From the NCBI GenBank assembly GCA_001786835.1, contig MFTO01000013.1:1002-65001 (forward strand): 64,000 nt of DNA, given 5' to 3'. Below are positions 7,390 to 57,038 of the stretch, piece after piece; the stretch's first letter is position 1; each line of letters starts with the position of its first letter. This DNA is from Candidatus Nomurabacteria bacterium RIFCSPHIGHO2_01_FULL_40_20. GTDB taxonomy: Bacteria > Patescibacteriota > Minisyncoccia > Phycocordibacterales > UBA9973. The notes beneath the pieces were generated by a model. It did not search any database. It was not told where the DNA came from and was given only the letters and a program-made list of their open reading frames with translations. A program made the translations under genes and the position numbers.

Positions 7390-7400
7390 AAAAAAATACT

Positions 7401-7473
7401 GCCGGGGTAGCTCAACGGTTGAGCAACTGTTTTGTAAACAGTAGGTTGGAGGTTCAAATCCTCTCCCCGGCTC
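7401..7473 (+). tRNA. tRNA-Thr (anticodon UGU)
   Basis: A cloverleaf was folded by hand: acceptor GCCGGGG/CCCCGGC, D-stem GCTC/GAGC, anticodon stem ACTGT/ACAGT with loop TTTGTAA, T-arm GGAGG-TTCAAAT-CCTCT, discriminator T. Confidence 0.9.
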
Positions 7474-27125: not shown

Positions 27126-27818
27126 TTAACTCCTTCTCTTCCACCCCTCAATCTTTTTATGATTTCCAGAGAGTAGCACTTTAGGAACTTTATAACTTTT
27201 AGACTTCTTGCCCCGCCCTGGCGGGGTGTATTTTAAAATTTCTGGCCGAGTATAAACTTCGCTTGTTGACACTCGTTCTTCTTCTAGAGACTCAAATTTA
27301 CCAAGCACGCCTTTGATTTGACGAGAAATACAGTCTATCAGAACCATCGCGGGAAGTTCACCACCTGTGAGAACATAATCCCCTATTGAAATTTCTTCTG
27401 CTTTGAAAATTTTTACCACTCGAGTATCAATGCCTTCATACCTACCGGAAATTAAAATAATATCCGTATATTTTTTGACTGCACTCTTTGCATACACGGT
27501 TGTAAATTTTTTGCCTGATGGAGAGAAAAGAATAATTTTTGTTTTTTTATTCTTTCCCTTCGATGAACTCAAGGCTTTACTGACTGCGTGAATTATGGGC
27601 TCGGCACGCATTACCATACCGGGACCTCCACCATATGGTCGGTCGTCCACAGGTCGGTAATTATTCTGATTTTTATTCTTGAGCACTTTTACAAAATCGC
27701 GTGGATTATAAAATTTAAAATCTATCAGTTTGTTCTTTTTCGCCCGCGCCAAAATAGACTCGTTAAAATACGAACTAAACATGTTGGGGAATATAGAGAT
27801 AATGTGAAATTTAATCAT
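27126..27818 (-). CDS. trmD: tRNA (guanine37-N1)-methyltransferase TrmD
   Basis: FHIISIFPNMF, DDRPYGGGPGMVM and YVLTGGELPAMVLID are the SPOUT/TrmD knot motifs. Confidence 0.9.
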   Translation of the reverse strand: MIKFHIISIFPNMFSSYFNESILARAKKNKLIDFKFYNPRDFVKVLKNKNQNNYRPVDDRPYGGGPGMVMRAEPIIHAVSKALSSSKGKNKKTKIILFSPSGKKFTTVYAKSAVKKYTDIILISGRYEGIDTRVVKIFKAEEISIGDYVLTGGELPAMVLIDCISRQIKGVLGKFESLEEERVSTSEVYTRPEILKYTPPGRGKKSKSYKVPKVLLSGNHKKIEGWKRRS

Positions 27819-27937
27819 AAAAAATTGCTGTGCCCGTCCGTAGCTTTAGCGCAGGAGGGTAATAACGTGGAAACGCATAAAAATACTATAATCTAAAACT
27901 GTAAAAACTGCCACTCAACAATAATCAACAATAAATA

Positions 27938-27971
27938 TGACACAAATTCTGCATAGGCAGAAAGTATGTCA
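27938..27971. repeat. Palindrome IR(a): TGACACAAATTCTGC-ATAG-GCAGAAAGTATGTCA (15-4-15, imperfect), directly 3' of the paralog-1 stop and about 40 nt upstream of the trmD -10
   Basis: Read directly; it is related to IR(b) and IR(c). Confidence 0.8.
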
Positions 27972-27975
27972 TTAT

Positions 27976-28455
27976 CTATATTTTGTATGGCTTTGCTAAT
28001 TTAAATGTTTTGATGCAATCTTTCAACCTTATCTCATCCAAATATTTCAAAAAATCTTTCGGCAAGGGTGATGGTCCGACCCAAACACTTTTTTGAATCA
28101 TAATGTAACTAAATTTTTTCAAATGAAAACGAAACCACTCTCTTTCAGCTTTTTGAACTACTGGTATATCAAACATAACTATGAGATTTTTAGACAAATC
28201 AACCGTTGTTGGTCTTGAAAAAGATTTCAATGAATCTTCTTTTCTCTTGAGATACTTTTTACCGTTAGCGGTTATTATAAAGCCATTTAATTCTTTCTTA
28301 ATTAAATCATTTCGAGCCAAGCGGTCAGCACTAGAGCGCAGACTTCTCCTTGAAAAACTATTAAAACGAGGAATGCCGAAAAGGTTAACGGGTACACCTT
28401 TATACTTTATTTCTGTATTCCAAAGTTCTTTTAAAATTTCTTCCACCATAGACAT
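27976..28455 (-). CDS. Winged-helix plus PaaX-middle-domain/Cas2-like protein, paralog 1. The track start is 28488 (GTG inside a palindrome), but the likely start is ATG at about 28455 (MSMVEEIL...).
   Basis: The C-terminal half (LIVMFDIPVVQKAEREWFRFHLKKFSYIMIQKSVWVGPSPLP) resembles E. coli PaaX (WLLLL...VKKQLIWQGFGALAPSLMASP) and the Cas2 beta-alpha-beta core (YDV...QNSVFEC). The N-terminal half is wHTH-like. Its paralog is at 52547..53035. Confidence 0.6.
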   Translation of the reverse strand: MSMVEEILKELWNTEIKYKGVPVNLFGIPRFNSFSRRSLRSSADRLARNDLIKKELNGFIITANGKKYLKRKEDSLKSFSRPTTVDLSKNLIVMFDIPVVQKAEREWFRFHLKKFSYIMIQKSVWVGPSPLPKDFLKYLDEIRLKDCIKTFKLAKPYKI

Positions 28456-28482: not shown

Positions 28483-28516
28483 TGACACAAATTCTGCATA
28501 GGCAGAACTTGTGTCA
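28483..28516. repeat. Palindrome IR(b): TGACACAAATTCTGC-ATAG-GCAGAACTTGTGTCA, overlapping the -35 region of the paralog-1 promoter (-10 TATACT at 28463-28468, then a leaderless ATG)
   Basis: Read directly. Confidence 0.8.
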
Positions 28517-29350
28517 TTAAAGATATTTCTTTTTATCCCTTTTAGTCATATATTTTTGACGATCAAACCTAGGTATATTCATCTCGTCTAGGGTTTTGCG
28601 CATTTTTTGGATATCTTCTAAATTTATACCGAATTCACCACTACCGCTTTTACTATACCGATTTTCAACACCAGCATATCCTTCTCTGTCTTTGTAATAA
28701 TCAGACTTAATAGTTGCTGCTGACTCAACTTTGATTATTCTTTTTGCTGTATTTTCTTTTGCTCCCATTGCTTGCATTGCAATCATCCTTTGAAAGGCTT
28801 TATTGGTGGCAACCTTGGTTTTCATTGTTTGGATAATAGACCTCACTCCACTTTGTATTGACTTGCCAAAGAGAACAACAATCATTCCAAGTTCGGTAAT
28901 TGTTAATGTATCGTATATATTACTAAAATCACCGCCTATATTATTTGAAATAGCTATGGAAAGATTAACAATCCCATCAGAAACTGGACCGTAATTTAAG
29001 AAGTCGGCTGCTAGTCCAGCGGCAATGAGACCCTTAATAATCGCCCCTTTCACATATTTGCTAGGGCGAGTAAGGTTTTCTTTGATATGCTTTTTGAGAT
29101 TTTCTTTTTCAACGTCATATTCGGTCTTGCCACCTTTTTTTAATTCGCCGGTATCTGGATTGGTATCTTTTAAATACGGACGTTTTTGCATTTCACTTTT
29201 AATATCAAATATTTCCGTAGCAAGTTCAGAATTCTTTTCCGTTATTTCAATACCGTAAAGTACAGAATTGGCATCGTCAAAATTGAGTGTTTTCTCTAAC
29301 CGCATCCTGTCCTCTTTTGAACCCATAGGTATAAAATTTTCGTTTGTCAT
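28517..29350 (-). CDS. Hypothetical protein with a central hydrophobic/Gly-rich segment (gene B of the palindrome-flanked island)
   Basis: A 277-aa ORF with no recognised domain and a hydrophobic stretch IIKGLIAAGLAADFLNYGPVSDGIVNLSIAISNNIGG.... Confidence 0.4.
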   Translation of the reverse strand: MTNENFIPMGSKEDRMRLEKTLNFDDANSVLYGIEITEKNSELATEIFDIKSEMQKRPYLKDTNPDTGELKKGGKTEYDVEKENLKKHIKENLTRPSKYVKGAIIKGLIAAGLAADFLNYGPVSDGIVNLSIAISNNIGGDFSNIYDTLTITELGMIVVLFGKSIQSGVRSIIQTMKTKVATNKAFQRMIAMQAMGAKENTAKRIIKVESAATIKSDYYKDREGYAGVENRYSKSGSGEFGINLEDIQKMRKTLDEMNIPRFDRQKYMTKRDKKKYL

Positions 29351-29370
29351 AATTTTTACTTTATTATTTT

Positions 29371-29535
29371 ATAAAGAAGCTTTCTCCGGTATCGACTTTA
29401 CTATATCTAAAAATTCACCGGAAAGACCTTTGACTATGTCCAAATACTGAAGATTTTCTTCTTCAGTAGCGCTACCGTCTTTCACTTTTTTCGCTAAAAC
29501 TTCAAGTTCTTCTATTGTAATTGGTTCCATATTTT
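29371..29535 (-). CDS. Possible 54-aa acidic small protein upstream of gene B (found by hand)
   Basis: It translates to MEPITIEELEVLAKKVKDGSATEEENLQYLDIVKGLSGEFLDIVKSIPEKASL*. A TTGACT-17-TACACT promoter containing a G10 tract lies upstream. Confidence 0.25.
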
Positions 29536-29567
29536 TATAAATTAAAACTTGTAATACCTAAAGTGTA

Positions 29568-29577
29568 CCCCCCCCCC
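29568..29577. promoter_or_regulatory. Homopolymeric C10 (G10 on the coding strand) tract inside the 17-nt spacer of a TTGACT/TACACT promoter driving the small-ORF/gene-B operon
   Basis: The minus strand reads TTGACT-taattgcGGGGGGGGGG-TACACT. Confidence 0.6.
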
Positions 29578-29598
29578 GCAATTAAGTCAAGGGGAGAA

Positions 29599-29642
29599 AT
29601 CAATGACACAAATTCTGCCTAGGCAGAATATGTGTCATTGAT
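29599..29642. repeat. Palindrome IR(c): ATCAATGACACAAATTCTGC-CTAG-GCAGAATATGTGTCATTGAT (20-4-20), upstream of the small-ORF/gene-B promoter
   Basis: Read directly. Confidence 0.8.
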
Positions 29643-29648
29643 TTTAAA

Positions 29649-29676
29649 AACAAAAAACTCGGTTTCCCGAGTCCTT
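29649..29676 (-). terminator. Rho-independent terminator of the rpsP-KH operon
   Basis: The minus strand reads ACUCGGGAAACCGAGU followed by U6 (plus strand AAAAAACTCGGTTTCCCGAGT). Confidence 0.7.
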
Positions 29677-29714
29677 TGCTAGAACCTAGTCACTAGTAGA
29701 CTAGAACCTAATTT

Positions 29715-30047
29715 TTATATCCCTTTCAAATCTTCCATCGCTTGGTCTACAGTCTTTAGGCTAGAAGCTCCTCCTTCGGACCTTTCAGGCCTGCTACCAC
29801 CTTCCGGCTCGTTTATTTTCAGATTTACGCGAGCGTTATTTTTCATCCCGATGATACGTAGAAGTGTGCGGATAGCTTTGGCGGTGTTGCCCATTCGCCC
29901 GATAATCTTGCCCATATCGGCAGGGTTCACGGTGAGCGTTATGAGCACCCCCATCTCATCGACAGTACGATCGATTTTGACATCATTCGGATTATCAACG
30001 AGAGCTTTTACTACATATTCTAGAAATACCTTATCTTGGTCTTGCAT
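29715..30047 (-). CDS. KH-domain RNA-binding protein (YlqC/UPF0109 family) of the rpsP operon
   Basis: VKALVDNPNDVKIDRTVDEMGVLITLTVNPADMGKIIGRMGNTAKAIRTLL is the KH GXXG motif, and the gene follows rpsP. Confidence 0.8.
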   Translation of the reverse strand: MQDQDKVFLEYVVKALVDNPNDVKIDRTVDEMGVLITLTVNPADMGKIIGRMGNTAKAIRTLLRIIGMKNNARVNLKINEPEGGSRPERSEGGASSLKTVDQAMEDLKGI

Positions 30048-30524: not shown

Positions 30525-31451
30525 CTACTCGGATTGCATGCCGTAGCCAGAGGACTGTTCTCCATACCCATTTACTTTCTTAAATCCTTTTACCGTCTTC
30601 TGCCCTTCTACAGAATATTGTCCGGGAACATCATAAAAACCTTTTACGCTTTTTTGTCCTTCGACTTCATTGAAACCCTTTACATCATACTGTCCGTCCA
30701 CAGCATTGAAACCTTTTACACTATATTGACCAGAAACTTCATTAAATCCTTGAACATTATAAAATCCGGGAACTTCATTGAATCCCTTTATTTCATTAAA
30801 TCCGGTTACAACATAGAACCCAGTTACTTCATTGAAGCCGTTTACACTATAAAATCCGGGCACTTCAGTAAAGCCAACCACGGGATAACTGCCAATAACA
30901 TTGTAAAATCCGGTTACTTCGTTTTGTCCTATAACAGTATAAAATCCGGGAACAGTAATATCTCCATCCACAGGGTAACTGCCAGGAACAGTGATACTTC
31001 CGGGTACAGTGATATTTCCATTTACATTGTAATGACCAACAACCGTCTTACTACCCGGAACTATATAACTAGCATTCACGCTATATCCTCCAGGAATCGT
31101 ATAGCTTCCCGGAATAATATAAAAACCGTTTATCGCAATCATACCTGGTACTGTAATATTTCCGGGAATAATATAATGCGCATTTACAGCATAACTGCCG
31201 GGAACAAGGTACTGGCCGTTGATACTGTAAAAACCTGGAACAGGATAAAAGGCATAAATGTAATAAAATCCAGGTATTCCATAATCCGCATCAACTCCAT
31301 AAAATCCTGGCGTGCCATAACCATAACAGTCGCAGGAGTAATCATAAAAACACCCGCACGCTTCCGCTTTCGGCGCAAAGAGAGCAAAAGACACAAAGAC
31401 CATAAGGCCTATAACTGCCAATATCATTATATTTGACTTTTTTAATTTCAC
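30525..31451 (-). CDS. Secreted Cys/Tyr/Gly-rich protein with about 45 tandem hexapeptide repeats (consensus x-x-x-V-x-G)
   Basis: A signal peptide, then ACGCFYDYSCDCYGYG, then a run of HYIIPG NITVPG ... FNEVTG FYVVTG FNEIKG FNEVPG ... QKTVKG. The underlying DNA has 18-bp periodicity. Confidence 0.6.
   Translation of the reverse strand: MKLKKSNIMILAVIGLMVFVSFALFAPKAEACGCFYDYSCDCYGYGTPGFYGVDADYGIPGFYYIYAFYPVPGFYSINGQYLVPGSYAVNAHYIIPGNITVPGMIAINGFYIIPGSYTIPGGYSVNASYIVPGSKTVVGHYNVNGNITVPGSITVPGSYPVDGDITVPGFYTVIGQNEVTGFYNVIGSYPVVGFTEVPGFYSVNGFNEVTGFYVVTGFNEIKGFNEVPGFYNVQGFNEVSGQYSVKGFNAVDGQYDVKGFNEVEGQKSVKGFYDVPGQYSVEGQKTVKGFKKVNGYGEQSSGYGMQSE
30560..31300. repeat. Coding tandem repeat with 18-bp periodicity (hexapeptide units) inside the 30525..31451 CDS
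   Basis: The protein shows about 45 consecutive xxxVxG units. Confidence 0.7.
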
Positions 31452-52546: not shown

Positions 52547-53035
52547 CTATCTTTTTCTTGTTTCAAATCCTTTTGCCAGTTTAAAGGTCTGGATATTGTC
52601 TTTGATCTTTATACGCTTGATGTAATCTAAAAAATCCCGCGGCAGTGGCGAGGGTCCAACCCAGACGCTCTTTTGAATCATCACAAAGCCAAACTTTTTC
52701 AAATGCCAGCGAAACCATTCCCTCTCCGCCTTCTTCTCTTCCGGAATATCATACATCAATAATAAATTCTTCGGCGCCTCTTTATCAAACTTATTTGAAA
52801 ATTGTTTTAAAGAATCTATTTTTCTTTCAATATATTTTCTTCCTTTGGGGGTAATCCGTAAAAAATCATTTTGCTCGTCAACAAATCCATTTTTATACAT
52901 ATAAAATAAAGTCCCTCGCAGAGACCCCTTGGAATAGTCCTTGAATTTTGGAATACCGAAAAGGTTAGTTGAAACCCCTTTGTATCTCAGTGTGGTTTTA
53001 CTTAATTCTTCTAAGATGTTATAAATCAACCCCAT
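52547..53035 (-). CDS. Winged-helix plus PaaX-middle-domain/Cas2-like protein, paralog 2
   Basis: LLMYDIPEEKKAEREWFRWHLKKFGFVMIQKSVWVGPSPLPRDF is about 70% identical to paralog 1 across the C-terminal half. A TATAAT sits 6 nt before the ATG, with a palindrome immediately upstream. Confidence 0.6.
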   Translation of the reverse strand: MGLIYNILEELSKTTLRYKGVSTNLFGIPKFKDYSKGSLRGTLFYMYKNGFVDEQNDFLRITPKGRKYIERKIDSLKQFSNKFDKEAPKNLLLMYDIPEEKKAEREWFRWHLKKFGFVMIQKSVWVGPSPLPRDFLDYIKRIKIKDNIQTFKLAKGFETRKR

Positions 53036-56126: not shown

Positions 56127-57038
56127 TTAAGTTAGCTTAAGCTCTACTTTAGATTTCCAAAAGAAATAACCAATGATAATGAAAGTAGAAAGCGGAGAAA
56201 CATATTCCGGAATATTAAAACCAAAACTATGAAGCACCATCACTATACCCAAAACAAGAATAGAATACATAGCGCCATTTTTGAGATATACATATTTCTT
56301 TATATTTTCTATATTACGAATGGTAAGCTCGCGTACCAAAACTGCACCGAAACCATTACCGAGCAAGATTAACGGCACTGATAAAGTAAAAGCAAAAGCA
56401 CCCAAAACGCCGTCAATAGAAAAAGTAGTATCAATAATTTCCAAGAAAAAAAGTTTTGATAAGTCAGACTGCGCGCTCCCTAAAAGTTTGCGCTCTTGCG
56501 CTTCCGCATTTTGTTTGAAACCGTGGGTTATAAAAAACAGCGAAGAGCCCACCACTGCGCCGAGCGCCATTTCTCCGGAGTGTTTGAGAGCGAGCCAAGT
56601 GATAACTGTAAGCAGTATTGACACAACCGCGTAAAACCACACTCCTTTCGCCATAAAAAATCTCTCTGGCCGAGGAAGCCCCAATTTTTTATCTTCTAAG
56701 AAAAGCCAATGCAAAAACAAAAACAAAAGAAATACTCCGCCGGCAACGAGAAGTATCGGTGCAGACCGCTCGATAGATTCATGCACCACTGGGTCAGAAG
56801 ACCAAGCAGCCGAGAGCACCTGTCCGACGGATAGCGTTGAATTGAAAGCCCAAATTATTAAAAACGGTAAAAGTCCGCGTACTAAAAAAACAGCAATAAA
56901 TATGCCCCAAGTGAGGAACCACCTGCGAGCGCGTTTGCCCATTGTGGAGAGCACTTCGGCGTTGATAATCGCGTTATCAACAGAGGAAACCGCCTCAAAA
57001 AGGGTAAGTCCCAGTATCGTAAAAATAGCCGCAAGCAT
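56127..57038 (-). CDS. TerC-like integral membrane protein
   Basis: FEAVSSVDNAIINAEVL resembles the TerC-family E..LS.DN motif, with at least 7 TM helices. Confidence 0.4.
   Translation of the reverse strand: MLAAIFTILGLTLFEAVSSVDNAIINAEVLSTMGKRARRWFLTWGIFIAVFLVRGLLPFLIIWAFNSTLSVGQVLSAAWSSDPVVHESIERSAPILLVAGGVFLLFLFLHWLFLEDKKLGLPRPERFFMAKGVWFYAVVSILLTVITWLALKHSGEMALGAVVGSSLFFITHGFKQNAEAQERKLLGSAQSDLSKLFFLEIIDTTFSIDGVLGAFAFTLSVPLILLGNGFGAVLVRELTIRNIENIKKYVYLKNGAMYSILVLGIVMVLHSFGFNIPEYVSPLSTFIIIGYFFWKSKVELKLT

Follow-up and report, generated by a model that had tools for sequence, protein, structure and literature searches.

A poly-G tract of two lengths in a predicted promoter spacer upstream of a conserved two-gene module in Candidatus Nomurabacteria: a candidate for phase variation in the CPR

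A homopolymer of ten G residues makes up most of the spacer between the -35 and -10 hexamers of a predicted promoter on the minus strand of the window (the whole stretch of DNA analysed, 64,000 nucleotides), upstream of a conserved two-gene module. The tract is one G shorter in two other assemblies of the same locus, and a pure tract of nine G is found at the same place in a distant relative. With moderate confidence, the arrangement represents promoter-spacer phase variation of the porA/tp0126 type, in which poly-G slippage would change the expression of the operon; slippage as the mechanism, an effect on transcription, its reversibility and an adaptive value are what we infer from the layout and its variation. 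The features of the locus are the following.

29715-30047, minus strand: khpA-like KH-domain gene (Pfam KH_KhpA-B, 4.8e-21)
29645-29680, minus strand: intrinsic terminator of the KH gene, a 14-bp hairpin and U-run (-20.4 kcal/mol, z = -3.8)
29597-29644, no strand: palindrome copy A, 48 nt, 96% self-complementary (-29.5 kcal/mol, z = -10.4)
29590-29585, minus strand: -35 hexamer TTGACT, from the consensus scan and relatives (TTGACT or TTGACA kept in L028, L029 and L033)
29584-29568, minus strand: promoter spacer of 17 nt, TAATTGC followed by G10
29577-29568, minus strand: G10 homopolymer (C10 on the plus strand), the -10-proximal 10 nt of the spacer
29567-29562, minus strand: -10 hexamer TACACT, with TAAAAT, TACTAT and TAAACT at the equivalent place in relatives
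29369-29530, minus strand: gene for a 53-aa acidic peptide (pI 4.4), first in the operon
28517-29350, minus strand: gene for a 277-aa protein of a small family, with an all-helical model
28483-28516, no strand: palindrome copy B (-24.6 kcal/mol, z = -8.0)
27976-28455, minus strand: gene for a PaaX-like regulator, 159 aa from the ATG at 28455 (Pfam PF20803, PaaX_M, Cas2-like, 5.1e-10, above cutoff)
27937-27972, no strand: palindrome copy C (-20.2 kcal/mol, z = -5.9)
27126-27818, minus strand: trmD, 3' of palindrome copy C

Read on the minus strand from 29600 to 29528, the window sequence is atttctcccc-TTGACT-TAATTGC-GGGGGGGGGG-TACACT-ttaggtattacaagttttaatttataaaaat-ATG, with 31 nt between the -10 hexamer and the ATG (29530) of the 53-aa open reading frame (ORF). 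The order of -35, G10 and -10 described in the initial annotation is borne out by the window sequence and by a consensus scan, in which TTGACT-17-TACACT matches at 9 of 12 positions, and its statement that ten G residues give a 17-nt spacer holds for the interval 29584-29568. The scan is unspecific, giving 16 sites in 2.8 kb versus 8.7 in shuffled sequences, so that the hexamers by themselves are weak evidence. The window also encodes a housekeeping RpoD-like sigma factor that has regions 2, 3 and 4 (L021 7542-8756), and promoters of the -35/-10 type are therefore expected in the organism. The rarity claimed for a tract of this length is also confirmed, as no other run of G or C in the 64-kb window (40% GC) exceeds 7 nt; for independent and identically distributed bases, about 0.012 (C) and 0.003 (G) runs of at least 10 nt are expected. 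A homopolymer of at least about 8 nt between the -35 and the -10, the feature that defines the porA and tp0126 type, is thus present, and the same layout with G9 occurs in a relative. Two other assignments were discarded. In the ORF list of the 64-kb window no ORF of at least 40 aa spans the tract on either strand, which rules out coding-frame phase variation, and an alternative promoter, TTTATA-16-TACAAT at 29541-29514, is ruled out because its -10 overlaps the conserved start codon.

Recovery of the family was limited (three members from a word-index profile search, two loci from a metagenome protein scan), so that seven lineages with accessible upstream sequence are comparable. Their promoters, aligned on the -10, are as follows.

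Window, Rifle: -35 TTGACT; spacer TAATTGC-G10 (G9 in two assemblies); -10 TACACT
L028/L035, Hainich groundwater (Germany), 40% protein identity: -35 TTGACT; spacer TCTTCTA-G9; -10 TAAAAT
L033/L034, 34% identity, module inside the spc ribosomal operon: -35 TTGACA; spacer GATATGTC-GGGGGAGGGG; -10 TACTAT
L029, Trout Bog, 35% identity: -35 TTGACA; spacer AGATGTGT-TGGGAAGGGG; -10 TAAACT
L011, 52% identity: -35 cTGACT; spacer TA-G6 (collapsed); -10 ATAATA
L030: -35 TTGTCA; spacer of 17 nt without G-rich block; -10 TATTAT
L031: weak -35; ordinary spacer without G-run; -10 TATAAT

In relatives whose proteins are 34-40% identical, the small orthologous ORF is preceded by the same -35/-10 pair at 16-18 nt spacing, and the pair is kept where the upstream genes are different (a PEP-utilising enzyme, a kinase in the spc operon, and others). 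This conservation of the hexamers supports the assignment of the putative promoter at the tract. In L011 a better promoter, TTGTAT-16-TATAAT, lies further downstream. The chance that a given 10-mer has at least nine G residues is about 4e-6 per site, and G-runs of at least 6 nt in 29 kb of the relatives' DNA are found solely at this promoter position. On the evidence of these alignments, the operon has inherited the G-rich block next to its -10, and in two lineages from different continents the inherited block is a pure homopolymer predicted to be prone to slippage. Both Hainich replicates have G9, with no variation there.

A C-rich run is located just 5' of the -35 as CTCCCC in the window (29591-29596), CCTCC in L028 (within 64-98) and TTCCCC in L011 (within 26-49). 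It can pair with the G-run (window 29568-29577), which would place the -35 in a loop of about 13 nt; in the window this pairing is part of the minimum free energy (MFE) fold and is absent from the centroid fold.

Two relatives have interrupted G-rich blocks, one reported as GGGGGAGGGG and the other as GGGAAGGGG. In these lineages (L029 and L033) G-richness appears to persist without hypermutability, which would also fit a sequence-specific role: the G-rich 10-mer abutting the -10 could be a conserved element that a regulator contacts or that tunes promoter opening, with length change a mildly deleterious by-product. We regard such an element as rather unlikely. It would account for the non-slippery, interrupted blocks (GGGGGAGGGG in L033/L034, TGGGAAGGGG in L029), for the tolerance of spacers of 16, 17 and 18 nt among the lineages, and for a C-rich run in the window, L028 and L011 that is able to pair with the G-run, but not for the two most distant family members (L030 and L031), which keep the operon with ordinary promoter-like spacers and no G-rich block. 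We know of no factor or motif that recognises a G-rich block of this kind, and interrupted tracts beside pure ones are the pattern expected when contingency loci lock, which counts against the element as well.

For the comparison of tract lengths, the locus was retrieved by exact-protein look-ups in the NCBI, ENA, JGI and Logan assemblies. The tract is G10 in the window, ERZ4903055, ERZ4903137, ERZ27254756, ERZ28563641, ERZ28563591, ERZ27254836, ERZ27254846, ERZ27254845 and Logan SRR2090155. It is G9 in ERZ27254763 and in the NCBI match GCA_001785875.1 (contig MFVA01000020.1), which belongs to Candidatus Nomurabacteria RIFCSPLOWO2_01_FULL_41_21 (CPR, Rifle aquifer). These two lengths are the only ones observed in the assemblies, where the ENA, Logan, JGI and NCBI data may share overlapping Rifle read sets, so that the independent observations number fewer than 12. 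The lengths are assembly-level calls and not read counts, and a technical origin may account for part of them. Over 8.3-8.8 kb the G9 contigs depart from the window by the one-G indel alone; for the NCBI contig it is the sole difference over 8,834 + 22,079 nt (about 31 kb), and ERZ27254763 has a single SNP in a further 22 kb. About 38 other homopolymers of at least 7 nt, six of them at least 8 nt long, were compared between the G9 contigs and the window and none differs. Within one MEGAHIT series (k141 contigs, ERZ272547xx-8xx) the tract is G9 in one sample and G10 in four; the same series yields both lengths and thus length tracks the sample rather than the assembler. G9 and G10 are found on slightly different SNP backgrounds, with too few SNPs to infer recurrence. 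The initial annotation had named a uniform tract length, together with loss of the tract from relatives, as the outcome that would speak against a phase-variable promoter; what is found is G9 and G10 between assemblies and G9 in a relative.

The G9/G10 polymorphism is very probably biological. That the two lengths are an artefact of sequencing or assembly at a real tract, in a monomorphic population with a constitutive promoter, is improbable. Homopolymers of such length are error-prone, a G10 tract beside a 48-nt palindrome is difficult for Illumina chemistry, and the variation is of +/-1 only. Contigs of five assemblies (L008, L014, L015, L017 and L018) start or stop within 6 nt of the tract, as would be expected if mixed lengths made the assembly graph ambiguous, or if coverage collapsed at the poly-G and the palindrome beside it; in ERZ27254845 the two contigs are separated at the tract by a 5-nt gap and not by a bubble, which favours a coverage problem in that assembly and, like the breaks, lends the artefact some support. 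An artefact is hard to reconcile with one pipeline giving different lengths in different samples, with G9 contigs of 109 and 151 kb, whose length implies good coverage and in which a consensus flip would take about 50% erroneous reads, or with the constancy of the other homopolymers (0 of about 38 differ). From what is known of mutation at simple sequence repeats, a bacterial G10 tract is in any case expected to slip at a high rate. The poly-G read artefact of two-colour chemistry is ruled out, as at least 10 assemblies continue through the tract and reach unique sequence on either side. In the JGI metagenomes a variable-gap pattern, CTTGACTTAATTGC-N{3,22}-TACACTTTAGGTA, gave 0 matches, and the JGI contigs of the organism (L009, L017) end before or after the tract.

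Other variation was seen among the same assemblies. In a second strain (L014, ERZ27254861), 10 changes are clustered at window 29477-29548, in the 5' UTR and the opening codons of the 53-aa ORF; the sequence is then identical for 1.5 kb, and the contig begins immediately past the tract. ERZ4903055, which elsewhere is 99.9-100% identical to the window across tens of kb, has 21 mismatches and indels within 66 nt at window 7400-7466, followed by a break in the alignment, and as far as the alignment can tell this is a local hypervariable or recombined patch. The same assembly differs from the window by three SNPs in 19 nt at 56244-56262, inside the gene for a TerC-family protein (56127-57038), where the surrounding 22 kb are otherwise identical. 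A scaffold that switches to unrelated sequence 78 nt into the 277-aa gene (L010 816-970, ENA ANAN16-1_SAMN03842439 scaffold_565067) is ruled out as a variant allele of that gene, since its divergent tail is unrelated high-GC sequence and the scaffold is chimeric.

The gene order on the minus strand is rpsP, the KhpA-type KH gene, the 53-aa ORF, the 277-aa ORF, the PaaX-like ORF, trmD and rpoB. A strong terminator ends the KH gene, so that the genes downstream need a promoter of their own. That the hexamers are fortuitous and the operon is read through from the rpsP-KH unit, with the C-run and G-run forming an attenuator-like RNA/DNA hairpin in the intergenic leader, is very improbable: the MFE fold does pair CTCCCC with the G-run and the hexamer scan is unspecific, but the pairing is missing from the centroid structure, the strong terminator and a 22-bp hairpin precede the operon, and the -35/-10 pair is conserved in relatives despite their differing upstream genes.

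The module of peptide and helical protein is situated here between rpsP-KH and trmD, inside a translation-gene operon, in a slot whose usual occupant is rimM. In L033/L034 (L033 1185-2520) it is situated between L5 with a kinase and the S14-S8-L6-L18 genes of the spc operon, and a long hairpin again adjoins the -35. A separate gene nearby (30525-31451, minus strand) encodes a 308-aa protein that begins with a hydrophobic, signal-like segment and continues with short degenerate repeats, dozens of them (..VPGFY.., ..GFNEV.G..). This protein, highly repetitive and rich in Gly, Pro and Tyr, matches no Pfam family and is a probable secreted or surface protein; internal repeats also show in its DNA (65% self-match).

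In each of the seven lineages with upstream sequence (7/7), the gene directly 5' of that for the family protein encodes a homologue of the acidic peptide, and this constancy indicates a real, conserved two-gene module. The peptide is more conserved than its 277-aa partner in the alignment; it was first described as 54 aa long and has 53 aa instead, its acidic character being upheld. A word-index search finds one homologue of the 277-aa protein, at 52% identity, and an exhaustive profile search gives a family of about 25 clusters at 50% identity, with lengths of 240-320 aa and the conserved motifs LTRPSKYVKGAVI-G--AAG, IKTK-A-NQKVQR and R--LDEMGIKRIDR-KY. The 277-aa protein is basic (pI 9.3). 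Its length stands as originally given, and the hydrophobic core then proposed is replaced by two moderately hydrophobic central helices at about residues 100-120 and 145-172 rather than a single clear membrane segment; its Kyte-Doolittle hydropathy peaks at 1.49, and in several relatives the peak is above 1.6. The protein has no signal peptide, and a surface location of the products is no more than a possibility. AlphaFold, with an alignment of 20 sequences, gives an all-helical model (pLDDT 72, pTM 0.65), for which neither fold nor sequence has a significant match in the PDB. The protein matches nothing in Pfam, NCBIfam, PADLOC or PHROGs, and the family is absent from the viral contigs scanned. 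The most that can be said is that the module consists of a putative membrane-associated helical-hairpin protein, of borderline hydrophobicity, and a small acidic partner.

In this genome the PaaX-like gene is probably co-transcribed with the two genes of the operon. Its product has an N-terminal wHTH-like region, with a weak CggR_N HTH match at residues 45-84. The gene is not beside the module in L011, L029, L030, L033 or L035, and the palindromes are likewise missing from the module in all relatives examined. A paralogous pair of PaaX-like genes occurs within 25 kb of each other in the window, at 27976-28455 and 52547-53035 (both minus strand); the products, of 159 and 162 aa, both combine a wHTH with the Cas2-like PaaX_M domain, and the DNA is 73% identical over 128 nt. 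Palindromes flank only the first paralogue and none is found near 52547-53035.

The palindrome is 36-48 nt long with the core TGACACAnnTTCTGCCTA[T/G]GCAGAATTTGTGTCA, and its three copies within the 64 kb are confined to this cluster. Six nucleotides separate the end of copy A from the -35 that follows it. Copy B begins at the stop codon that ends the 277-aa gene, with 27 nt between the copy and the probable ATG of the PaaX-like gene. Copy C, between that gene and trmD, begins 3 nt past the PaaX-like stop codon. In the strain variants L004 and L016, the SNP T>A at 29611 turns copy A into a perfect palindrome. In another Nomurabacteria species, a MAG from Lac Pavin (L020 3655-3700), a perfect copy directly follows secY and is itself followed by UUUUGUUUUU (a U-run); no PaaX-like gene is among the ORFs listed near it, and by its sequence this copy looks like an intrinsic terminator. 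Copies A and B of the window have no U-run after them and copy C has a U-rich stretch only. Where the arms differ, some of the differences still allow G-U pairing on the sense strand. For the palindrome as a whole the candidate roles are operator, terminator and mobile hairpin of the REP type; for copy A they are operator of the PaaX-like protein and hairpin at a gene boundary. Their co-location with the gene suggests that the palindromes may serve as operators of the PaaX-like protein, which would add conventional regulation to the promoter with the tract. A search of Rfam with the palindrome gave only sub-threshold matches to generic hairpins (miRNA precursors). A CRISPR-like array, to which a Cas2-like domain and repeats might point, is ruled out, as the repeats number just three and are separated by 0.5-1.1 kb of sequence that contains genes.

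For phase variation by slippage in the promoter spacer, the following course of events is proposed. TTGACT-N17-TACACT would act as the sigma-70-type promoter of an independent transcription unit between the KH gene and trmD, made up of the genes for the 53-aa peptide and the 277-aa protein and probably, in this genome, for the PaaX-like regulator. The poly-G tract, which makes up 10 of the 17 spacer bases, would undergo slipped-strand mispairing at replication, and each G gained or lost would shift the distance between the -35 and the -10, from 17 nt (the optimum) with G10 to 16 nt with G9 and 18 nt with G11. Such a change would raise or lower transcription of the operon heritably and reversibly, and the population would hold a mix of expression states, a graded volume control as in porA and tp0126. 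Since spacers of 16-18 nt all occur among the lineages, volume control is more likely than ON/OFF switching at the tract. The phase-variable tract of the initial annotation accordingly gains from the G9/G10 difference between assemblies and from the poly-G of a relative, and of the two modes that it allowed, ON/OFF switching gives way to the graded one. Expression would be expected to differ between G9 and G10 by analogy with porA and tp0126 and from the 16- versus 17-nt spacing; the phenotypic effect may be small, as 16- and 17-nt spacers are both normally functional.

Phase variation by promoter homopolymers is textbook knowledge in Neisseria, Treponema, Mycoplasma and Bordetella. In Neisseria meningitidis porA, a poly-G of 9-11 nt between the -35 and the -10 changes by one-nucleotide slippage and gives graded expression, surface expression changing 2-fold from 11G to 10G and 13-fold from 11G to 9G (PMC3639595). 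The window is like porA in having a poly-G in the promoter spacer whose length alters the -35/-10 distance. The porA product, however, is a well-characterised porin of the outer membrane, exposed to antibody selection in a pathogen restricted to its host, with switching and expression both measured, whereas the present case concerns an uncultured CPR bacterium of groundwater, with products of no known family and a polymorphism seen at the DNA level between assemblies alone. In Treponema pallidum, tp0126 has a poly-G between the -35 and the -10 with best transcription at 17 nt, and in tprL tracts of 7-11 G vary within isolates (PMC7864442). For tprE/G/J/L the tract is upstream of the start site and not strictly in the spacer, with length heterogeneity seen by fragment analysis (PMC7864442). 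T. pallidum resembles the CPR bacteria in its reduced genome and in being hard to culture, and its targets are putative outer-membrane proteins. Within the CPR, a Gracilibacteria (BD1-5) genome has a hypervariable intragenic repeat locus (PMC6851277). This locus has in common with what is proposed here a slipped-strand-type hypervariation in a CPR population, together with a fragmented assembly, and differs in that a 9-mer coding repeat (PTD repeats) within a gene alters the protein and not the level of transcription. No report of promoter-homopolymer phase variation in CPR/Patescibacteria was found in the searchable literature, the nearest being this intragenic repeat of a Gracilibacterium. 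The mechanism is already known. As far as that literature goes, what is new is a CPR case, on a conserved module that is specific to the CPR and has a homologous tract in a distantly related lineage.

Practically, a variable tract would account for the contigs that repeatedly break here, and its length in any single MAG would be one state of the population. CPR/Patescibacteria of groundwater are ultra-small and presumed episymbionts. More tentatively than phase variation as such, the locus may be a contingency locus of these bacteria, in which the poly-G spacer has been kept or repeatedly regenerated on different continents (Rifle, USA, and Hainich, Germany) and stochastically tunes a membrane-active module of two proteins specific to the CPR, possibly affecting host attachment or exposure to phage. 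If phase variation is true here, it would be the first by a promoter homopolymer outside host-associated pathogens in this radiation, and the module would be flagged as an interaction determinant. Bet-hedging by hypermutable promoters would then operate in uncultured, genome-reduced environmental bacteria as well. A conserved, uncharacterised gene pair would be singled out as one whose dosage is under fluctuating selection, which would make it a concrete candidate for studies of host interaction or phage exposure where functional leads are few.
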